This document shows, in pieces, positions 24,563 to 40,400 of a stretch of DNA of 62,886 bases (position 1 is the first letter of the stretch; the number at the start of each line of letters is the position of its first letter). The notes beneath the pieces are model-generated. The model was not told the DNA's origin. It did no database searches and was given only the letters and a program-made list of their open reading frames with translations. Location: positions 1 through 62,886 of IMG/VR virus record IMGVR_UViG_3300017971_003303. One strand, 5' to 3'. The DNA is from a virus. Its lineage: Duplodnaviria; Caudoviricetes. The translations under genes and the position numbers were made by a program.

Positions 24563-26811
24563 AGACCCATTTGTTTAAGAGTATCCTCAAACCTAACCTC
24601 CTTCTTTTTCTTTTTTCCTGGAAGTATCAAATATTTATAATCCCATCCTAAACTCTGATACAAAGGTCCCACTTTCATATCAACTATCCTCATAATCATC
24701 TTGTCGTAATCTATTTGATATCCATCCCACATATAACTTCCTGATTTGAATGCAACTACATTATCATAAGAATTTTTTATAAACACATACTTAATCTTAT
24801 CGCCTTGTTGAATTTGCGCATTATGATGTTTATTTGCATTTCTAGCGGCTCTTACATGGATTGTATTTCCATAACTATCCAAATTTTTACTTATAGATAT
24901 TGGTAAGGCAAAATCCTCAACCTCAAACTTTGTTTTAATTTTTAATTTAAAATCTTCTATATATTTATCAATTTCTTCCTTACTTTTTTCATAGCACAAC
25001 ATTTTTAAAACTTCTCTTATAAATACCCTTCCAACTCTTGGACTATCACTTCTTTTACTTTCAAAACCGACAACTGAAAACTTATCTACATACTCTCCAT
25101 CTTCCCAAATTATCCTTCCTGCATATCTCTTTTTAGCACCTTCACCACATGCTTTCCTCTTAAATAAAACTGTTTTATATACTTTCTCAAATTCTAATTT
25201 AAAAATATTATTTTTATCCTCAACACCTAATTTTTTAAAATATGTTTTGAAGTAATTATTTATATCATTGTTTAAAGATATGAAATCGTTAATAGACTTT
25301 TCTCCCATTTCTATAAAACAACTATCAGTATCACCATAAACAATTTTTAATCCTTTTTCTTCAAACCACTTATGTACTTCTTTTATAATTTTCCTAGCCA
25401 TATAAGTTATTGTTTCAGCAACCTTACCTTTAAACAATCTAAATAAAGGAAAACCTAACACACCATAAAAACTATTTGCTATTGTCTTTAAAGCATATTG
25501 AGTCATCCATAATGTTTTATACTCCCTACTATTTTTATCTAATACTTTCATTTTGTCTTTTACTTCTTTCCTTTCATCCAAAAGAGGTTTAACTATTGAT
25601 GGGATTAGTCCTGGTTCTCTTTTGTAATAAAACTTATCGTCTATATTTAAACATCCTTCCTCTCTCTCTTGTAAATATGTTTCATAAGAGGTATTAAATC
25701 CTATCATGATACTTGGATATAGGCTTTTCATATCCATAACAGCTATGTTTTTATGAATCTTTGGTTCACTATCATGAACAAATCCTCCTTCATACTTTAA
25801 TCTTTTATTTTTTTGTACTGAAGGAAGAATATATTTACCTTTGACTGTACGAAGACATAGACAATCTGCTATTTTTGAATTCATAAATACATCCTCAAAC
25901 TTACAAAAACAAAGTCTTCTTAACTCATCAAAAAAATCAACTATCCTTAATTTTTCATTTAACAATACCATTAATTCAACATCTTTTTTATTATATAATA
26001 AAAATTTTTCAATATCTGTTTTATATAAATCATCTAATTCACCTTTGTATTTTTCTTTTTCTCCTACATTTTCATATTGACTTATATAATCTAAACTCCA
26101 ACTCTCCCTTCCTTGTCCTGCAGTAATCTTTTTGTATCCTTGAAGAAGGTCAAAACAAATTCTTCCAAAAACTTTTGTTGTGTAGTGATTTTTGAATCTA
26201 TGTTTTATTGCATAACATTTTTGTTCTATTCGCCCCAGTTTATTATTGTTTATTCCTAGATTTTGTAATCGGTTGATTATGAATGGAAAGTCAAAACCAT
26301 CACCATTCCAAGCAATAAACATGTCTGGGTCTTTTTCTTTTACATAGTTTATAAAAGCCATTAACATTCTTTTTTCATTATTGTGAGTTTTACCTAAACA
26401 AACTTGCCAATATTTTTTATCAAAACTATCATAACATCCTATACATATGATTGGATTGTTGGCTTTTTCTGGTGATTCATAACCTTTTTCTGTTTTTGCA
26501 ATTTCTATATCTATATAGCAAATTCTAATTTCGTCTTGTTCTATCTTATCAAAATTATCTATTATAAAACGATTTGTATAAACTATATCTGCTTCATGAT
26601 GATTTTCGTAGTTATCTCTAACTTTCTTAACATGTTTTGGGTCCTTAGTGAATACTTTTTTTAGACTTACTCCTGATATTGATTTGTGTTTGCCTTCATA
26701 ATGTTCGTAGTAGAAGTATGGCTTAAAATTAACTTTATTTTCGTGTAGTACTCTTTGTTTGTCTCTACCATAAATATATATTTTGGAACCTATATTTTCT
26801 ATTGTTATCAT
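24556..26811 (-). CDS. polB: Family B DNA polymerase with 3'-5' exonuclease
   Basis: DIE, NGDGFD, YNKKD; DMKSLYPS, KTIANSFYG, YGDTDS. Confidence 0.97.
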   Translation of the reverse strand: MITIENIGSKIYIYGRDKQRVLHENKVNFKPYFYYEHYEGKHKSISGVSLKKVFTKDPKHVKKVRDNYENHHEADIVYTNRFIIDNFDKIEQDEIRICYIDIEIAKTEKGYESPEKANNPIICIGCYDSFDKKYWQVCLGKTHNNEKRMLMAFINYVKEKDPDMFIAWNGDGFDFPFIINRLQNLGINNNKLGRIEQKCYAIKHRFKNHYTTKVFGRICFDLLQGYKKITAGQGRESWSLDYISQYENVGEKEKYKGELDDLYKTDIEKFLLYNKKDVELMVLLNEKLRIVDFFDELRRLCFCKFEDVFMNSKIADCLCLRTVKGKYILPSVQKNKRLKYEGGFVHDSEPKIHKNIAVMDMKSLYPSIMIGFNTSYETYLQEREEGCLNIDDKFYYKREPGLIPSIVKPLLDERKEVKDKMKVLDKNSREYKTLWMTQYALKTIANSFYGVLGFPLFRLFKGKVAETITYMARKIIKEVHKWFEEKGLKIVYGDTDSCFIEMGEKSINDFISLNNDINNYFKTYFKKLGVEDKNNIFKLEFEKVYKTVLFKRKACGEGAKKRYAGRIIWEDGEYVDKFSVVGFESKRSDSPRVGRVFIREVLKMLCYEKSKEEIDKYIEDFKLKIKTKFEVEDFALPISISKNLDSYGNTIHVRAARNANKHHNAQIQQGDKIKYVFIKNSYDNVVAFKSGSYMWDGYQIDYDKMIMRIVDMKVGPLYQSLGWDYKYLILPGKKKKKEVRFEDTLKQMGLW

Positions 26812-27908
26812 ATTAATAACTCTTGTTGTTTAGTTTCATCCTTTTTAAAACTCATTCTATACTTATCACATGTCTTTTCAAATCCCATTTTATCACAATC
26901 GTCAATAAAGTTTAATGCTTCCATCACTCTTTTATTGGGATTTATTGTTTCTTTAACTATTTCTGTATACTTGTCTTTTCTTAATGAGTCTAAAAATATA
27001 TTTGTTTTTAACATACTCCATAAATTATGTGCAATAAACCATCTTCCTACTAATACTTCATTTTGTTTTAATAGTTCATTATAGTCTATTTTTTGACAAA
27101 CAGGACAACAGCAGAATGATTTTGTGAAATGAAAATCCTTTGTTATGGATATAATTTTATCTGAGGATATAGGATTATAACAATTCCATCTACTAGCACC
27201 ATTTAAGGCGTTAGAGGAGTCGAATGTGGTTATACTATTTCTTATTAATATTATCATTCTATTAAAACTACCAATACCTAGGAAGTGAACATAACATCCT
27301 TTATCAATAAAATATTTTTTTGCGTGAGATGAAGAAAGAGCTAAATATAATATATCATCAGTTTTTGCTGCGTATACTATTCCTCCAGGAAATGCTTTAC
27401 TATACTTGTCAAGACCCAGTTTCTCATCAATTATTTTTAAGTTATAATCTAATTGGTCTTTGGATTTACCATGAAGTATATAACAAAATCTCTTATGATA
27501 CTCTGGATAATTGTCTCTTAGGAATCTTGCTTGCATTAAAGCAATATCAAAATTCTTTTCAATTATTTCCTTAATCTTTTCATCAGTATGGTATGTAAAT
27601 TTACTACCTCTTTGCTGTTTAACTGGGGGTGTATCAAATGAAAATATTTTGGTTGCATTTAGGGATATTTGTTTTAATAGTGATTCCTTCCAATCCATTT
27701 TACATTGTCCAGATATCACTTGAAATCCTCCTGAATCTGTAAGTAAAAATGTATCTGGTCTCATCAATGGTTTTAATTTTTCTGGTTCTATTGTTTGAAG
27801 ATTTATAAGTACATTCGGATAATAGAATGGTGAATCGTCTTTCCACCAATGTACATTATCATTAATGGCATACCAAACATTATGTACTGGTATGTATCTA
27901 CTCTTCAT
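26808..27908 (-). CDS. dpdA: TGT-fold guanine transglycosylase (DpdA-like; 7-deazaguanine insertion)
   Basis: TDSGGFQ, VHFLG, FDSS, CxCxxC...HN zinc motif; between queC and polB; start placed at ATG 27908 (ATGA overlap). Confidence 0.8.
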   Translation of the reverse strand: MKSRYIPVHNVWYAINDNVHWWKDDSPFYYPNVLINLQTIEPEKLKPLMRPDTFLLTDSGGFQVISGQCKMDWKESLLKQISLNATKIFSFDTPPVKQQRGSKFTYHTDEKIKEIIEKNFDIALMQARFLRDNYPEYHKRFCYILHGKSKDQLDYNLKIIDEKLGLDKYSKAFPGGIVYAAKTDDILYLALSSSHAKKYFIDKGCYVHFLGIGSFNRMIILIRNSITTFDSSNALNGASRWNCYNPISSDKIISITKDFHFTKSFCCCPVCQKIDYNELLKQNEVLVGRWFIAHNLWSMLKTNIFLDSLRKDKYTEIVKETINPNKRVMEALNFIDDCDKMGFEKTCDKYRMSFKKDETKQQELLI

Positions 27909-28546
27909 TTCTGGGATTTTGGGCTGCATGTTATTTTTGTATAGTCTACATGGGATTCCCAAGCTTTTGAGTTATGAGGAACATTTAGATTACCCCATGT
28001 TAAAACTTCATATAATTTATCATAATCTTTTAGGAAGTCAGGAAATCTTAATAATATATAATCTATACCATACTCTAGTACTCTTTGTAAACTATCGTAG
28101 AAATTTTGTTTTAATTCATTTGGAGTTTGTTGTAATAATTTATGGTCACCAGAAAATCTTTGTTGTCTTTCAGATGTTTTACGTTTACTTTCTACCACCT
28201 CTTCCATATTTCTTGATAGTATTAAAAGTTTATCTCTATTACCTCTTTGGGTATACCAATGTGTTACAAATTCTGGTCTCATTAACAGGAAAGAAAATTT
28301 TTGTACTTCAAATTCTAAATCACTTAATGGTGTAAATTGTCTATCACCTATACTAGCATTAAAGTCAATGAATGGGAATGTAGTATCATTTAAATGTTGT
28401 TGATAACTTTTACAAATATCAGGACTCTCTAGTCCACCATTTATTTCCGAATGCCAGAACTCTGTACCAAAATCATAACCTTGTTCTTTAAGGAATTTTG
28501 ATAACATACTACTTCCTGTTCTTTGAGTACCACATATAACTAACAT
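27905..28546 (-). CDS. Sulfotransferase-fold P-loop protein
   Basis: N-terminal ICGTQRTGSSMLS (5'-PSB-like), LSRN..EVVES (3'-PB-like), LRFPDFL. Confidence 0.7.
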   Translation of the reverse strand: MLVICGTQRTGSSMLSKFLKEQGYDFGTEFWHSEINGGLESPDICKSYQQHLNDTTFPFIDFNASIGDRQFTPLSDLEFEVQKFSFLLMRPEFVTHWYTQRGNRDKLLILSRNMEEVVESKRKTSERQQRFSGDHKLLQQTPNELKQNFYDSLQRVLEYGIDYILLRFPDFLKDYDKLYEVLTWGNLNVPHNSKAWESHVDYTKITCSPKSQK

Positions 28547-29187
28547 TATTCATTTCCCTTAATTTTATTATTATAAATATTAAATGCTTCTATTCTCTCT
28601 TTACAACTTCCACATTTATTACAAGGTTCTTTACCACCTTTATAGCAAGTCCATGTCATCCCATATGGTACTTTTAATTTTATTCCAATGTTAATAATTT
28701 CCCATTTCTTTAATTTGTTAAAAGGACTTAATATTGTTACGTAATTATATGTTCCTTCTGCTGATGCCATTGACATTGATTTTATAAATGATTCTCTACA
28801 ATCAGGATAAATAGTATAATCTCCAGCATGACTTCCAATAAGTACACTATTGGCTTTAATATTTTCTGCATAACCAACAGCATAAGAGAGCATAATTCCA
28901 TTTCTAAAAGGTACTACAGTTGATTTCATACTTTCATCCTCATAGTGTCCTTCTGGTATTTTTTTATCTGAGTCTAGTAAGGATGAATTAAAACAACTAA
29001 AATCTAATTTTATAATTTTATGTTTAATATTGAGATGTGAGCAATTCCATTTAGCAAACTCAAGTTCCTTTTTATGTTTTTGTCCATAGTCAAAACTAAG
29101 AGCTTCTACTTCTTCGTATTGCTCCTTAGCCCAATACAAAAGAGTAGTACTATCTAAACCCCCACTTAAAATTACTATTGCTTTCAT
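28546..29187 (-). CDS. queC: 7-cyano-7-deazaguanine (preQ0) synthase
   Basis: SGGLDS, DYGQKH, VPFRN, YPDCR, TWTCY...C..C..C. Confidence 0.97.
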   Translation of the reverse strand: MKAIVILSGGLDSTTLLYWAKEQYEEVEALSFDYGQKHKKELEFAKWNCSHLNIKHKIIKLDFSCFNSSLLDSDKKIPEGHYEDESMKSTVVPFRNGIMLSYAVGYAENIKANSVLIGSHAGDYTIYPDCRESFIKSMSMASAEGTYNYVTILSPFNKLKKWEIINIGIKLKVPYGMTWTCYKGGKEPCNKCGSCKERIEAFNIYNNKIKGNE

Positions 29188-29768
29188 TTTATTAGATTCA
29201 TAAATTCCTCTTTACATTTATTATTATCGTCTAAAAATATTCCTCTAACTTCTGATGTAGTGAAATCACCATTATCACCTTGTAATTCTGCACAAAAATG
29301 AGTTGCATTAACTACTACTATAACCCCCTTTGGTTTAATATTCTCCATAATCCAATCAGCAACTTGTGCTGTTAGTCTTTCTTGAACCTGGAGTCTAGCC
29401 GCAAAATATTTTATAATTTTATCTATTTTATTCATACCTAACATATGTTTATCTGGTATAATTCCAACCCAACAAGTTCCTGAGAATGGAACTATATGAT
29501 GTTCACAGAAAGATATGAATTTAGTGTTACGAATGACCATTCCTTGAGTTTCATTTTTGAATACTGTTATTGGAATTATATCTATTAAAGGTCTTGTATT
29601 TCTTTCTTTTTCATCCATAACAACTAATTTTTTTTTGTATCCATAAAAAAAGTTGTTATAAAGTCTTGTCACTCTTGTTGGTGTAGCTTTTATGCCTTCT
29701 CTTTCTATGTCTTCGCCTATTTGATATAATATTTCTCTTATTGCTGTTCTTAAATTTTCATTCGTCAT
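29184..29768 (-). CDS. folE: GTP cyclohydrolase I
   Basis: TPTRV, CEHHIVPF, RLQVQERLT, HFC. Confidence 0.95.
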   Translation of the reverse strand: MTNENLRTAIREILYQIGEDIEREGIKATPTRVTRLYNNFFYGYKKKLVVMDEKERNTRPLIDIIPITVFKNETQGMVIRNTKFISFCEHHIVPFSGTCWVGIIPDKHMLGMNKIDKIIKYFAARLQVQERLTAQVADWIMENIKPKGVIVVVNATHFCAELQGDNGDFTTSEVRGIFLDDNNKCKEEFMNLIK

Positions 29769-30468
29769 TCTCCTCTACCCTACAAGCTAACATAAATTCA
29801 AAATCTATGTCATCGTTTTTAGCTCTTATTATTATTGGTTGTGTTTGACTAAATCCGATTCTTATTTCGTCAAAAATATTTTTTATATCTTTTATCATAT
29901 CTATATAAGTTAAATCATACCAACACCAACAACCATCACTTTCTATTTTTTCTGCCTCTAAATTTACATCACCCTGAACCATTTTTGATTTTATATGTAG
30001 AGTTAGTTCACTTCCGCCTATTTTACATATTTCGGAGAAGTCTAATAATTCGGAAACGTTACTAAAGAAATCTGTGGATTTTATTTTCCATTTTGAGGAA
30101 GTTTGTATATCTGGTCTAGGTCTTTCATCTTTACTTCCTACAAAATAGTTTAATTGAAAATCGTTTTTATCTCCACTAATATATAATCTATCGTCTTGGG
30201 CTTTTATGAATAATTCTTTTTTACCTACTTTCTTTATAATTTTATTGAGGAGTTGTAGGTTGAGGGTGTAGGTTATTTCTTTCTTAATATTATATTCCTC
30301 AAACATACTTTTATTTATCTCAAATATTACATAACAATGTTTTGAGAGATGTATGGCTCTTATAAATATGCCTTCTTCCTTAAAAACAATATCTGTCTCT
30401 ATAGTTAGTTTCTCTAATACTTCAACTACATTTTTAAGATATTGTAGTTTCTCTTTCAACTTTAACAT
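29758..30468 (-). CDS. PCNA sliding clamp
   Basis: 236 aa; F.EEGIFIRA, FEEY, C-terminal PIII...FMLACRVE matches the PCNA pattern (LAPR). Confidence 0.85.
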   Translation of the reverse strand: MLKLKEKLQYLKNVVEVLEKLTIETDIVFKEEGIFIRAIHLSKHCYVIFEINKSMFEEYNIKKEITYTLNLQLLNKIIKKVGKKELFIKAQDDRLYISGDKNDFQLNYFVGSKDERPRPDIQTSSKWKIKSTDFFSNVSELLDFSEICKIGGSELTLHIKSKMVQGDVNLEAEKIESDGCWCWYDLTYIDMIKDIKNIFDEIRIGFSQTQPIIIRAKNDDIDFEFMLACRVEENDE

Positions 30469-30472
30469 TTAA

Positions 30473-30775
30473 TTATTTCTTTTGTTTCTTTCTACACTTT
30501 CTACAAACATATTTTGTGTTCTTCCATTTTTCATATCTCTTTCTTCCGGCTTTCTTTTTTACACCACAAACACTACATGTAAGAGTAAGTCCTGATTTTT
30601 TCATAGGTTTCTTTTCTCCGTTTGGCATTTTTACTTTTTCCTCCTTTTCGTAATATTCATCAGCATCAAATTCTTCTAGTTCTTTCATAGTACAATAACT
30701 ACACTTAACTTTCTCAGTATCATCTCCAACATTATCTACTAATATTCCACATTTATGACAATTTAAACTCTTCAT
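30473..30775 (-). CDS. Double zinc-ribbon protein
   Basis: Four CxxC motifs. Confidence 0.6.
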   Translation of the reverse strand: MKSLNCHKCGILVDNVGDDTEKVKCSYCTMKELEEFDADEYYEKEEKVKMPNGEKKPMKKSGLTLTCSVCGVKKKAGRKRYEKWKNTKYVCRKCRKKQKK

Positions 30776-31167
30776 TTTTCCTCCCAAGGATAAACTATCC
30801 ATTTGTCAGTTTCCCAGACGTAGAAGTCTGGTTTAACTCTACTACACGGTTTATAATGAAGTGTAGCTATTTTCATACTAAAAATAAAATTTCTTAAAAT
30901 AGTTCCACCAGTATCACTAACATCGTCTATAAATAAAATATTTGGTATCTTTCTTCCTACTTGAAGAAAATCAGTCTTGTCAGTAGCTATTTTTTTAACA
31001 TTTAGTAGATGTCCTAATCTAGTTGCAATAGGTAAACCACCTCTTGGAATAGTGAATATAACTTCTGGTTTAAATTTTGATTGTTTAATTTGTTTAGCTA
31101 ATTCCTTACAACCTTCGTCAAATTGTTTCCAAGATAAATGTTCCTTTTTCATTATACACTCTCCCAA
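30772..31167 (-). CDS. Type I purine phosphoribosyltransferase (xanthine-guanine PRT-like)
   Basis: IPRGG, ILFIDDVSDTGGT (PRPP loop), WIVYPWE. Confidence 0.9.
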   Translation of the reverse strand: MGECIMKKEHLSWKQFDEGCKELAKQIKQSKFKPEVIFTIPRGGLPIATRLGHLLNVKKIATDKTDFLQVGRKIPNILFIDDVSDTGGTILRNFIFSMKIATLHYKPCSRVKPDFYVWETDKWIVYPWEEK

Positions 31168-31334
31168 ATTCCTTTAGTTAATGCCACTATGAATGTCCAA
31201 ATTATAGCCATTATGATATATATTGTTATCTCAACAGGGTAAATCCATAAGAAATGCCAAAAAGACATAAACCCCTCTCCATTAATAGCTAAAAATACAA
31301 GATTAACTACTAGTAATATTGTTGCTATCATCAT
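31152..31334 (-). CDS. Small membrane protein
   Basis: Two hydrophobic segments; GGAGG RBS. Confidence 0.5.
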   Translation of the reverse strand: MMIATILLVVNLVFLAINGEGFMSFWHFLWIYPVEITIYIIMAIIWTFIVALTKGIWESV

Positions 31335-31428
31335 TTTTTATCTTCCTCCTTTGAATATTGATTTATAAAATTATCATCGACGTCCATTCTTTTTCCTTCT
31401 TGTTCATATTCTTCTAAATTATCATATA

Positions 31429-32043
31429 TCATTTTCTTTTTTTATTACCCCAAACATCTACATGTATTCGAGGAGAGTATTTAATGTTATGTTTAATACA
31501 ATAGTTCCATACAGTTTGTTTTATATCTTCGTCTAATTGTTTTTTGAATGTTGTTAGTGGCATTAGTATTGTTGCTTTGTCTAAGAGGATTGGGTCATAT
31601 CCAACTGTTTGAAGGTCTGTTACTATTTTTATATCCCAATCCCAACCTGCATTATCAACTTGCATTACATAATTTAATATATTTTGTGCCACTCTTGATT
31701 CTTTTGGTGAGAAACAAATGTAACTGAATACTCTTGGTGATTCAGGAAGTATATCACCGTTGGTTTCTAGGTGATGACAGTATTTAGAAGTTTCGGAAAT
31801 TACATCATGAATTTCATCTTCTTGTAACATAGGTTCACCTCCTGTCCAAACTATATAATCCATACCGCTATTTTTTATCTCCTTTATAATCTCTTTTGTT
31901 GTCATCTCTTTTCCTTGTTTATGATATTTTGTATCACAAAAGTCACAATCTCTAGTGCAACCTGACAATCTTATGAATAGAGCTGGTTGTCCTGTATATT
32001 TTCCTTCTCCTTGTATTGATTTAAATATTTCCGATATTTTCAT
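31429..32043 (-). CDS. queE: 7-carboxy-7-deazaguanine synthase (radical SAM)
   Basis: EIFKSIQGEG, CTRDCDFCDT, TGGEP, LETNG, SPK. Confidence 0.96.
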   Translation of the reverse strand: MKISEIFKSIQGEGKYTGQPALFIRLSGCTRDCDFCDTKYHKQGKEMTTKEIIKEIKNSGMDYIVWTGGEPMLQEDEIHDVISETSKYCHHLETNGDILPESPRVFSYICFSPKESRVAQNILNYVMQVDNAGWDWDIKIVTDLQTVGYDPILLDKATILMPLTTFKKQLDEDIKQTVWNYCIKHNIKYSPRIHVDVWGNKKRK

Positions 32044-32148
32044 ATTAATACACCTATAGCAATTCCTATTGCCAATCCTATCATAAATAACATTAACATT
32101 AATAATGTTATACTTATACCTCTATACCTATTAAATTCTTTTGTCATC

Positions 32149-32556
32149 TTATCCTTCTACCTCTGCATAACTTTTTGGTGATTCATATACTCTAACTTTG
32201 AAAGTTAAATCTTTTCTTTTAATCTTTCGTAAAATATCATAAGCTATATGTTCTGCTGTAGGATTTTCATCCATAGGATATATACTTCCTAATCCACAAG
32301 TTTTTATTATTGCATCTGCTAAGTCATGATTTTCAGGACAATTTTTTAGTAGAGTTCTGTGGTCATATTGTGCTTCTAACATTTTTACTTCTCCAAAATC
32401 CCACAAAATTCCTACATCATCTAAACTTGATTTATTCCCTCTAACTTCTAACTCTACATACCACCTATGACCATGTAATCTACTACATGCTCCTTGATGA
32501 CCAACTAATCTATGTGCCGCATCAAATTCAAATTGTGTTTGTAATTTTATTTCCAT
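32149..32556 (-). CDS. queD: 6-carboxy-5,6,7,8-tetrahydropterin synthase
   Basis: FDAAHRL, CSRLHGH, DH, NPTAE, ESPKSYA. Confidence 0.96.
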   Translation of the reverse strand: MEIKLQTQFEFDAAHRLVGHQGACSRLHGHRWYVELEVRGNKSSLDDVGILWDFGEVKMLEAQYDHRTLLKNCPENHDLADAIIKTCGLGSIYPMDENPTAEHIAYDILRKIKRKDLTFKVRVYESPKSYAEVEG

Positions 32557-32738
32557 CCTAATCCAGATACTTGCATATGACCTTTTGAGGCAATTCGTAC
32601 CATATCCCCTTCTTTCGCATCATTTAAAGCTACACCACAAAATACACCATCTACAGCTGTCCTAATATATCTCATATCTTCATCTACATTTTCCTCTTCA
32701 TCTTCATCATATATTGTTTTTAATTTTCCTAATTCCAT
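32547..32738 (-). CDS. Small protein with a capsid-cement-like (DUF2190-type) motif
   Basis: FCGVALNDAKEGDMVRIASKG resembles FVGVALHDVTSGAAVSVATRG of 55703-56146. Confidence 0.4.
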   Translation of the reverse strand: MELGKLKTIYDEDEEENVDEDMRYIRTAVDGVFCGVALNDAKEGDMVRIASKGHMQVSGLGWK

Positions 32739-32749
32739 TTTTGATTATG

Positions 32750-32872
32750 AATCCCCCACTTTATAGTCGTTTTTGGTATTTTCGCCTTCCACGGCAGTTG
32801 ATTATACCAGGATTTGAACCTGGAACATTTACCTTGATTGAGCTATATAATCTAGTCCCACGGTGGGGGTCA
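32750..32872 (-). ncRNA. Structured RNA containing an anticodon-less tRNA-like domain (32799-32852)
   Basis: Minus strand GATTATA-TA-GCTCAATCAAGGTAAATGTT-CCAGG-TTCAAAT-CCTGG-TATAATC-A; enclosing CCCCCAC/GTGGGGG stem. Confidence 0.6.
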
Positions 32873-32898
32873 AATTTCGTTTTTTGTTTTCGTGAGCA

Positions 32899-33351
32899 TT
32901 ATTTTGATTTGGATTCTTGTAATTTTCCAAATCTGTCAAGGCTCTCATTAACCCCTTGTATTAATTCATTTATAGTTGATTTCCTTTCATCACTAGTCGC
33001 CTTAAAGTTCTCTAAATCTTCTTTTGCATCTTCAATTTGTCTATCTATTTCATCTTGTGTATTAGTTATCTTTATATCAAAATCTGTCTTATCTCTTTTT
33101 AGTTGCTCTAAATCTCTTTTATGTTGTAACTCAAAATCTTCTTTTTTTCTCTTTAAATCTGACTCTCTTACAGTTAGATTTAACTCAAAATCTCTTATAT
33201 GTTTTGCTATATCGTCTTTTTTTCTATTCAGACTTGTAACTTTATTTTCTTTCTCAACTACTACATCATTTAAGCCATCTCTTTCCCTTACTAGTTCTCT
33301 TTTTTGTTTCTCTAGGTCAGCAATTACTTCATATCTACTCTTTGTTTCCAT
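32899..33351 (-). CDS. Coiled-coil protein
   Basis: Charged heptad pattern; GGAGG RBS. Confidence 0.6.
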   Translation of the reverse strand: METKSRYEVIADLEKQKRELVRERDGLNDVVVEKENKVTSLNRKKDDIAKHIRDFELNLTVRESDLKRKKEDFELQHKRDLEQLKRDKTDFDIKITNTQDEIDRQIEDAKEDLENFKATSDERKSTINELIQGVNESLDRFGKLQESKSK

Positions 33352-34120
33352 TTTTTCCTCCTTTTAATTTATTAATATGATTTATAAATGTTTTATAGTC
33401 TAGATTAGGAAATACTTTCCCCATAATATCTTTTAAACTTCTACTTTTTTCTATGCTACTATAAAAATTTATATTTCCCATTTTATCAATCTTCTTTGTA
33501 TTATGAATTACATAATCAACCCAAAATCCTGTTGACTTTTGCCATTTGGGTTTTACCATATTTGTGGGTTGTCCTGCACCTGCATATATTTCTCCTTCTC
33601 TTGCTGTTAGTATTATATTGAAATCAGAGTTAACTAGTCTTTGTATTATTCCTAAATACATTTTATTTATAACTCCCCAGTCCCATTGTTGTTTTAATCT
33701 ATCCATAGGGTTTAATTTAAAAACTTTAACTTTTGCATTCTCTTGAGCAAAATCCCATAAATCACTAACACTATCAATTATTACTGTGCCTTTTTGTTCT
33801 TGAGTCATTATATAATTTATAGCTTTTTCTATTTTATTAAAACTCTTACTTCCATCCTCTTCCAAAATATCCAAAACTTTGATGTCTTTTCCTTCAAAAT
33901 TATGAGCTAAGGGAACAACACCGTTTTCAGTATCAAGTATATAAATGGGTTCTGGACAAGTCAAAGCGAAATGAGTTTTACCTGTCGCGTAATCTCCATA
34001 AATTCCTATCTTTAATCCTCTACCTTTTCTAACTTCTTTTAGAGGTTTAAATATTACTTCTTCCTGCTTTTCTTCATCTGTGTTTTTTAATTCATTCCAT
34101 CCCAATTCATTCCATCCCAT
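33335..34120 (-). CDS. AAA_24/Sak4-like P-loop ATPase (putative recombinase)
   Basis: GDYATGKT, ILDTENG, VIIDS, ILTARE; adjacent to SSB. Confidence 0.75.
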   Translation of the reverse strand: MGWNELGWNELKNTDEEKQEEVIFKPLKEVRKGRGLKIGIYGDYATGKTHFALTCPEPIYILDTENGVVPLAHNFEGKDIKVLDILEEDGSKSFNKIEKAINYIMTQEQKGTVIIDSVSDLWDFAQENAKVKVFKLNPMDRLKQQWDWGVINKMYLGIIQRLVNSDFNIILTAREGEIYAGAGQPTNMVKPKWQKSTGFWVDYVIHNTKKIDKMGNINFYSSIEKSRSLKDIMGKVFPNLDYKTFINHINKLKGGKNGNKE

Positions 34121-40327: not shown

Positions 40328-40400
40328 ATCGCAGTGTGGTGTAATGGCAGCACATAGGACTCATGCTCCTAAGGTCTTGTTCGAATCAAGCATCTGCGAT
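40328..40400 (+). tRNA. tRNA with CAT anticodon (Met or Ile2), imperfect acceptor/T stems
   Basis: D arm GTGT-AATGGCA-GCAC, anticodon arm TAGGA-CTCATGC-TCCTA, T arm CTTG-TTCGAAT-CAAG, ends ATCGCAG/CTGCGAT; no encoded CCA. Confidence 0.65.

Follow-up and report, generated by a model that had tools for sequence, protein, structure and literature searches.

What does a tRNA-like sequence without an anticodon arm do between two genes of a virus? The question is raised by the virus record IMGVR_UViG_3300017971_003303 (Caudoviricetes) of IMG/VR, which is rated complete and which we analysed whole, over all 62,886 nucleotides (nt), as the window of this study. Its minus strand carries, at 32852-32799, a 54-nt tRNA homolog in which the anticodon arm and the 3' strand of the D stem are missing. 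This module lies within a structured RNA of about 145 nt (32896-32753, minus strand), which we call the scaffold. We give a probability of roughly 55% to the reading that the module is a non-decoding remnant of facultative tRNA cargo, tolerated in loop 3 of the scaffold, and that the scaffold is the conserved unit.

A tRNA homolog without an anticodon arm

The initial annotation, made from the letters of the DNA, had described an anticodon-less tRNA mimic embedded in a larger structured RNA. Every part that it listed was found where it had been placed: the acceptor stem, the start of the D arm, the T arm, the discriminator, a pair of CCGTGG copies (32863-32858 and 32794-32789, minus strand), a GCC hairpin and an outer stem. 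The module itself is made up as follows.

32852-32799, minus strand: whole module, GATTATA-TA-GCTC-AATCAAGGTAAATGTT-CCAGG-TTCAAAT-CCTGG-TATAATC-A
32852-32846 with 32806-32800, minus strand: acceptor stem, GATTATA with TATAATC, 7/7 pairs
32845-32832, minus strand: start of the D arm, TA GCTC AA..GG
32845-32824, minus strand: U8-A9, GCTC and loop
32823-32807, minus strand: T arm, CCAGG-TTCAAAT-CCTGG, stem 5/5
32799, minus strand: discriminator A

The Rfam tRNA model, RF00005, matched exactly 32852-32799 with 33.5 bits and E = 1.7e-4 (permissive filters, 3141-nt piece); the gathering cut-off of this family is 29 bits. The match covers model positions 1-71, with 1 nt in place of 17 anticodon-arm positions, so that the arm is read as a deletion and the description as an anticodon-less, tRNA-derived element holds. 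The proposed check with tRNA finders gave a divided result, since this match was obtained with permissive filters and the module was called neither by ARAGORN nor by a default gathering-threshold Rfam scan of the whole window. The sole tRNA that both programs called in the window was a tRNA(CAT) at 40329-40400. Among the features that define a tRNA, the model score, the 7-bp acceptor stem, the TTCRANY T loop and the discriminator are present, and the D stem and an anticodon-bearing arm are absent. No CCA is encoded 3' of the discriminator. Folded in isolation, the 54 nt gave a minihelix of acceptor stem and T arm (-10.3 kcal/mol, z = -2.24). In a context of 121-141 nt, the minimum-energy structure retained the outer stem, the T arm and the GCC hairpin, and the A-U-rich acceptor stem was lost. 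The exact 24-mer formed by the T arm and the acceptor 3' strand had 0 matches in viral contigs.

We considered whether the module is an assembly error or a chance resemblance, as the missing calls by ARAGORN and the default Rfam scan might suggest. Contigs carrying the stretch were found in three public DNA runs from three studies, two of which are possibly the source of the record. The third run, X3, is independent and contains a 434-nt contig over 32794-33227 with 0 differences (no X3 contig lies over 32728-32793). Because the sequence in this run is identical, the module is not an assembly artefact. The Rfam E value, the score over the family cut-off and the full tRNA at the syntenic site of relatives (below) also contradict the artefact reading, which is refuted as far as these data go and to which we give almost no weight. 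No RNA run was among the public runs listed as holding the stretch. The roles put forward in the initial annotation (an mRNA-processing signal within the operon, a decoy against anticodon-nuclease defence or a new class of small RNA) are putative.

A full tRNA at the syntenic position

Relatives of the neighboring AAA_24 protein were found in three viral contigs at 60% identity (L001, L003 and L004; related loci are given L numbers). In L003 and L004 the gene order is that of the window, with AAA_24 followed by a homolog of a coiled-coil open reading frame (ORF) and then the RNA, and a full 77-nt tRNA-Arg(CCT) stands between identical flanks, TTTGACCCCCAC ... AAAGTGGGGGATT. The same flanks without a tRNA were present in L009, identified by a scan for the outer stem. 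In L001 (4001-5200), where AAA_24 is equally close, AAA_24 is followed directly by queD, and neither the coiled-coil ORF nor the RNA nor a tRNA is present. The ORF and its RNA therefore act as a single accessory unit.

The window was aligned with 13 full tRNAs that occupy the same slot in relatives (alignment A6). These tRNAs share a 5' GATNNTA-TAGCTCA and a 3' (A/G)TGTT plus T arm, and the window row has a 22-column gap. The deletion was found in none of the other 75 unique inserts of the slot, and the form consisting only of acceptor stem and T arm is unique to the window. Where the deletion begins and ends can be read in two ways. If CAAGGTAA, which was retained, is the D-loop, positions 22-43 were deleted; if it belongs to the anticodon stem as its 3' strand (cf. 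TAAGGATA of L057 and L069), the loss covers roughly positions 17-37. The contacts of G18-G19 with the T loop survive only under the D-loop reading.

Because the differences between the window and L003 in the acceptor and T stems are paired changes, the comparison shows that these stems were selected during most of the divergence, a result that does not extend to the time after the deletion. The initial annotation had taken the intact stems as an argument against simple decay. This argument is weak, as no relative is close enough to gauge selection after the deletion. The closest relative of the coiled-coil ORF has 55% identity, and the viral, metagenome and genome collections held nothing closer than this or the 60% of AAA_24; blastn of 32300-33400 against 50,697 phage records gave no match.

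A conserved pseudoknot with a variable slot

The scaffold and the features on either side of it are given here in their order on the minus strand.

32899..33351, minus strand: 150-aa coiled-coil ORF (METKSRYEV...), 5' of the RNA in all relatives
32891..32896, minus strand: P1a, CTCACG, 5' strand of P1, pairs with P1b
32870..32890, minus strand: L1, 21-nt A-rich loop, AAAACAAAAAACGAAATTTGA
32863..32869, minus strand: P2a, CCCCCAC, 5' strand of the outer helix P2
32857..32862, minus strand: P1b, CGTGGG, 3' strand of P1, abuts P2a
32799..32852, minus strand: 54-nt tRNA-derived module, matched by RF00005, in loop 3
32784..32795, minus strand: P3 hairpin, GCC-GTGGAA-GGC, ends 24 nt before P2b
32760..32783, minus strand: A-rich 3' linker GAAAATACCAAAAACGACTATAAA, ends ..TATAAA (family consensus ..AAAnTTAAAAG before P2b)
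32753..32759, minus strand: P2b, GTGGGGG, 3' strand of P2
32742..32752, minus strand: border motif, AT + TCATAATCA; a similar motif lies 3' of P2b in 44/75 sequences
32547..32738, minus strand: 63-aa ORF, followed by queD (32149-32556)

TG separates the stop codon of the coiled-coil ORF from P1a, ACTA links P1b to the tRNA module, and ACT links the module to P3. The helix strands follow one another as P1a, P2a, P1b and P2b, with 0 nt between P2a and P1b. Since P1 and P2 cross, the topology is that of an H-type pseudoknot with the insert in loop 3. In the family alignment described below (A5), the window forms 6/7 of the P1 pairs and 7/7 of the P2 pairs.

To survey the family we used an alignment search with the coiled-coil ORF, which yielded 13 viral loci, 4 genome loci and the best 80 of 165 metagenome relatives; 93 loci were examined, window included. 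A complete scaffold was present in 82 of the 93 (81 by script and L015 by hand), and the remaining 11 ran off a contig end or had <=139 nt of downstream sequence. The RNA follows the coiled-coil ORF in every related locus with enough sequence, and L104-L109 also carry the scaffold. The window has the features of the family: crossing, covarying P1 and P2, a 21-nt A-rich L1 ending AAATTTGA, and an A-rich linker before P2b. In 78/81 loci L1 measures 21 nt, AAATTT is invariant in A5, and the L1 motif occurs in the window as a single copy (1 match vs 0.01 expected).

Covariation was measured in A5, a MAFFT alignment of 75 distinct sequences in which P1 was scored at fixed columns. In the two helices 97.3% of cells were paired, compared with 76.6% in shuffles; 12/14 pairs changed on both sides (212 cells), and the covariation score was 0.599 vs 0.193. 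None of 500 shuffles reached the observed values in any of five covariation measures, and slid controls were 37.5-60.6% paired. All 7 column pairs of P1 changed on both sides, with 94.7% of cells paired across the 75 sequences. The outer stem P2, for which a covariation check across relatives had been proposed, changed on both sides in 5/7 pairs; P2b was located by demanding perfect pairing, so that the 100% figure for P2 is partly built in. P2a and P2b occur in 20 distinct complementary combinations, G.U pairs included (for example CCCTCAC with GTGGGGG), and the structure therefore lies on the gene (transcribed) strand. With a covarying outer stem and a GCC hairpin that recurs across the family, the claim that the tRNA-like part is embedded in a larger structured RNA is borne out. 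A pseudogene or assembly artefact had been named as the outcome if relatives carried a full tRNA at this site, the deletion were unique and the outer stem lacked covariation. The full tRNA in L003 and L004 and the unique deletion were indeed found, whereas the outer stem does covary and the module is not an assembly artefact.

No Rfam 15 family matched the scaffold in the window or its relatives. Among the papers listed on permuted tRNAs, DPANN viruses and tRNA-like RNAs, no title or abstract opening described this RNA. The scaffold is thus a real and widespread structured RNA family of probable archaeal viruses, and apparently an undescribed one.

Several other identities were considered for the scaffold and rejected. 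The boxes of a bacterial promoter (TTGAC in L1 and TATAAT past P2b) are 120 nt apart, relatives show on inspection no conserved -10 at 17 nt past TTGAC, and the G.U pairs point to a structure on the transcribed strand. A general promoter motif was discarded because ATTCATAATCA, the border motif, is not enriched across the window (83 matches vs 82.3 expected). A frameshift or readthrough signal does not fit either, as P1a lies past the stop codon at a variable distance and is followed by non-coding sequence. Against a known ribozyme, riboswitch or small RNA, Rfam gave only tRNA and sub-threshold, chance-level matches. By eye there was no fit to a k-turn, C/D box or bulge-helix-bulge.

Two further observations concern the scaffold sequence. 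A TCATA-NTCA motif is found on both borders of the RNA, where it overlaps P1a and follows P2b, and in many loci (L075, L078, L086) it lies upstream of P1a. Separately, the invariant 3' end of L1, ATTTGA (window 32870-32877), is complementary to the T-loop TCAAAT (32812-32818) family-wide; this may be a coincidence of A/T-rich hexamers.

We also examined the virus genome and the four relatives from the genome collection. The G+C content is about 29-30%, and the genome encodes a family B DNA polymerase, a portal/MuF protein, the AAA_24 ATPase (Sak4-like), a phosphoribosyltransferase, a TGT-like (DpdA-type) protein, QueD, QueE, QueC, GTP cyclohydrolase I, PCNA, a PD-(D/E)XK nuclease and a D5-like primase-helicase. 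Two of the four relatives lie on contigs labelled Candidatus Woesearchaeota, one lies in 'Archaeon BMS3Abin17', and one is in a Paceibacterota bin (L105), where it was probably misbinned. The PCNA gene of the virus and the relatives in archaeal metagenome-assembled genomes (MAGs) point to an archaeon, probably of the DPANN group, as the host. An archaeal RNase P RNA above cut-off and a tRNA splicing endonuclease are present in each of the three archaeal MAGs with relatives (0.9-1.3 Mb). The 62.9-kb virus genome itself gave no match for Ro60/TROVE, RtcB, tyrosine integrase or a splicing endonuclease; a control search for TROVE found it in 2/14 reference genomes.

The coiled-coil ORF matched no family of Pfam or PHROGs, and a search of the protein Atlas returned coiled-coil look-alikes only and no function. 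P2b is followed by ATTCATAATCAAAA and then by the ATG of the 63-aa ORF, 14 nt past P2b; this ORF had no relatives in viral contigs. The initial annotation had placed the element next to queD, which is correct in this genome and specific to it, as other genes follow the RNA in relatives. A complete preQ0 (7-deazaguanine) set, comprising GTP cyclohydrolase I, QueD, QueE and QueC, lies 3' of the RNA on the minus strand (26808-32556), together with the TGT-like (DpdA-type), phosphoribosyltransferase and PCNA genes. The gene content of this stretch suggests a module for DNA modification, carried by a virus that is probably archaeal.

The slot in loop 3 held 76 unique inserts of 39-147 nt, window included. 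Thirteen were full tRNAs called by ARAGORN, 24 had an intact T arm without an ARAGORN cloverleaf, and 39 had no T arm. The tRNA cargo of the scaffold is thus facultative. ARAGORN assigned the 13 tRNAs to Ile-GAU (four), Ile-UAU (three), Met-CAU, Gln-UUG, Arg-CCU and Lys-CUU, with two odd loops, and in 11/13 of these inserts the tRNA starts at insert position 6-9, abutting P1b. The 39 inserts without a T arm contain one to three hairpins only. A GCC...GGC hairpin was found in 21/75 inserts, vs 7 in a reversed-sequence control; it ends 15-29 nt before P2b in 17/21 and sometimes contains the encoded CCA end of the tRNA. T-runs past P2b were seen in 10/75 sequences, of which 9/10 had inserts of <=67 nt, and in 0/13 with tRNA-bearing inserts.

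A tRNA fragment at a fixed site could also be a relic of an attachment site, that is, a piece of a host tRNA copied for site-specific integration. Phage attP sites often carry the 3' parts of tRNAs, and some relatives of the window lie in MAG contigs. The virus has no tyrosine integrase, however, and both acceptor strands are present and paired with each other. Relatives carry full tRNAs with differing anticodons at the same spot, and the L1 motif is present as a single copy in two of the archaeal MAGs and without a match in the third, which also led us to reject L1 as a host-type tRNA flank. An attachment-site origin is therefore highly improbable.

ARAGORN recognised 13/37 of the T-arm-bearing inserts. 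In 11/24 of the partial inserts an acceptor-like hairpin with a closing loop of 3-6 nt comes directly after the T arm. TA, a D arm and an anticodon arm then follow the hairpin in L023, L060, L068 and L079, which is a circularly permuted order with a closed acceptor end. Permuted modules of this kind (e.g. L060:1470-1560) have UUG, UAU, UCG or GAU anticodons and an acceptor hairpin loop of 3-5 nt, join the scaffold via a short helix at the position of the variable arm, and are missed by tRNA finders. After in silico rotation ARAGORN recognised a tRNA in 5/12 such inserts. A third arrangement was seen in L036 and L103, where ARAGORN called a full-length tRNA once P1b was used for the 5' side of the acceptor stem and P1a, placed behind the T arm, for its 3' side. 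By eye, L030 and L031 look the same (P1b, TA, D arm, anticodon-like arm, T arm). In L060, L079 and L028 (3' part of the insert), the P3 loop TTACAC is complementary to a conserved linker GTGTAG, which in the permuted class may form a second pseudoknot.

Such orders raise the possibility that the window carries a tRNA gene that is interrupted in the DNA and made whole in the RNA (as a split, permuted or trans-spliced tRNA), with a decoding tRNA still being made. Split, permuted or trans-spliced tRNA genes occur in some archaea. A probable DPANN host, indicated by 3/4 of the genome-collection relatives being in archaeal MAGs and by the PCNA of the virus, would suit this explanation, as would the splicing endonuclease of those MAGs and the permuted modules of relatives. 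In the window, however, the 5' and 3' parts are joined directly in the DNA, with 1 nt for 17 model positions. No bulge-helix-bulge was seen on inspection at this junction or in the J helices of permuted relatives, and the virus has no splicing endonuclease or RtcB ligase. We consider completion at the RNA level very unlikely.

Known permuted tRNA genes provide a comparison for the relatives. They are reported from algae (C. merolae) and one archaeon (T. pendens); their intervening sequences measure 1-74 nt, and the junction is a bulge-helix-bulge (PMC3978253). The relatives of the window resemble this description in having the 3' half before the 5' half, with a 3-5 nt loop between, and differ from it in a junction that lies in the variable region and is on inspection a plain helix without bulge-helix-bulge. 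The window itself is unlike permuted or split tRNA genes, having the normal order and no intervening piece.

By our own reading of the sequences, many tRNAs of the slot look degenerate in one way or another, with mismatches at 1-72 or 2-71, A at position 33 and odd anticodon loops. As read from these sequences, this variation fits an ongoing decay of dispensable cargo. The A33, in place of the near-universal U33, is seen in L003:5289-5365, L069:2356-2432 and the L073 insert, which have CCU or CAU anticodons. L069 and L077 encode ACCA despite the mismatches of slot tRNAs. Other tRNA-like sequences lie beyond the slot. In L013:2915-3005 (contig also L085/L105), about 20 nt past P2b and a T-run, there is a sequence with acceptor, D and T arms and an over-long anticodon region, possibly an intron, that ARAGORN did not call. 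Ordinary tRNAs were matched by Rfam directly or a short way past the scaffold in L068:2447-2513 (54.1 bits) and L060:1634-1705 (64.3 bits), and the region is therefore a tRNA neighborhood in some relatives.

Tolerated remnant or tRNA mimicry

In the reading that we prefer, the module would descend from a tRNA gene of the GATNNTA-TAGCTCA... family of the slot, whose members in relatives have the anticodons GAU, UAU, CAU, CCU, UUG and CUU. An internal deletion of about 20-22 nt would have removed the 3' strand of the D stem and the anticodon arm, leaving a remnant that would no longer decode. The conserved function would then reside in the scaffold and not in the tRNA cargo. The scaffold may act in cis, as a structured RNA in the intergenic region or at the 3' end, where it would close off the upstream gene's transcript and host or tolerate a tRNA, and it might serve as an insulator between the coiled-coil gene and the next transcription unit. 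The remnant may still be cut at 32852 and 32799 in hosts with RNase P, because RNase P, tRNase Z and the CCA-adding enzyme are known to act on minihelices of acceptor stem and T arm, and the candidate hosts have RNase P RNA.

Several observations weigh against this interpretation. In this genome of about 30% G+C, the two stems that remain pair without a mismatch (7/7 and 5/5), as would also be expected of a selected minihelix, and the acceptor stem is better paired than in most of the 'full' slot tRNAs. T arms have been kept in many inserts without the other arms, so that selection is possibly for the T arm itself. The acceptor end is closed in two of the family's three tRNA topologies, which suggests mimicry, at least in those relatives. 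The nearest relatives, at 55% (coiled-coil ORF) and 60% (AAA_24), are too distant to date the deletion or to gauge later selection, and the function assigned to the scaffold is one that we infer.

The perfect stems, the kept T arms and the closed acceptor ends favor the main alternative, which we consider less probable and in which the minihelix of acceptor stem and T arm is a selected mimic of the top half of tRNA and the working part of the element, displayed on the pseudoknot scaffold. It might be an RNase P/tRNase Z site that splits a polycistronic RNA, separating the coiled-coil gene from the 63-aa ORF and queD, or serve to bind or titrate a tRNA-recognising host factor. The perfect acceptor stem, T arm and discriminator, the canonical T arm in the 24 inserts without an ARAGORN cloverleaf, and the RNase P RNA of candidate hosts are all consistent with this. 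Closed-acceptor bodies in the order T arm, acceptor hairpin, D arm, and the use of P1 itself as an acceptor stem in L036 and L103, also agree with it. However, 39/76 inserts have no T arm at all, so that the scaffold needs no tRNA-like part, and the architecture of acceptor stem and T arm only was found in no second insert. The full tRNA in a syntenic relative, the absence of an encoded CCA past the discriminator and the exclusion of the A-U acceptor stem from the minimum-energy fold in longer context also count against such a mimic.

A broader form of mimicry, which we regard as rather unlikely, would extend to the whole family. The pseudoknot cap (P1, L1 and P2) would then display tRNA-shaped modules as mimics and not as decoders, and the family would be a new class of archaeal-virus RNA. 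Its modules would be whole, permuted with a closed acceptor, built on a scaffold helix, or reduced to the half formed by acceptor stem and T arm. The window element would be a working member of this class. A host factor that reads the shape of tRNA would be captured by the RNA or would process it; examples are RNase P, tRNase Z, a CCA-adding or a modification enzyme, and a tRNA-sensing defence protein.

A precedent for the processing of closed-acceptor mimics is YrlA (RF02553), a Y RNA-like tRNA mimic of bacteria and phages. YrlA is likewise a tRNA-like body embedded in a larger RNA, with the order of T arm, acceptor-like hairpin and D arm that is seen in L068, L079, L060 and L023, and RNase P is reported to cleave a YrlA whose acceptor has 7 bp, which also receives CCA (PMC4201824). 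By analogy, this processing lends some support to a top-half mimic. The YrlA model gave 31.7 bits for L068 and 30.3 bits for L079 vs a cut-off of 69, and did not match the window. The window element differs from YrlA in its normal tRNA order and in its acceptor stem, which is open. The virus lacks a Ro60/TROVE gene and has a probable archaeal host, and the scaffold is entered through the variable region or the acceptor stem and not through the anticodon stem.

The tRNA-like domain of transfer-messenger RNA (tmRNA) also has an acceptor stem and a T arm with no anticodon arm and no D stem. In contrast to tmRNA, the window has no tag frame and no pseudoknots between the halves, and its 3-70 pair is U-A, not G.U. 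No tmRNA was found in the window by ARAGORN or Rfam, and the only Rfam tmRNA match in a relative was a 17-nt fragment of 15.5 bits. Plant mitochondrial t-elements and mascRNA are mimics of acceptor stem and T arm that are cut from longer transcripts by RNase P and RNase Z. The module resembles these as an acceptor and T-arm mimic in a putative longer transcript, and differs in that half of the relatives lack the module. A viral tRNA pseudogene is, like the module, derived from a tRNA, matched by RF00005 and unable to decode, whereas the window keeps a perfect minihelix inside a conserved pseudoknot RNA and not in plain spacer.

A truncated tRNA would by itself be of modest interest. This one exposed a structured RNA family that is not in Rfam 15, with more than 80 viral and metagenomic loci apparently linked to DPANN archaea, in which one slot holds tRNAs in three topologies. 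If these are cargo only, the family offers a natural record of how tRNAs are gained, are permuted and decay at one site, and a conserved pseudoknot that calls for explanation. If the tRNA-shaped cargo is functional, it would represent a new way of tRNA mimicry by archaeal viruses.

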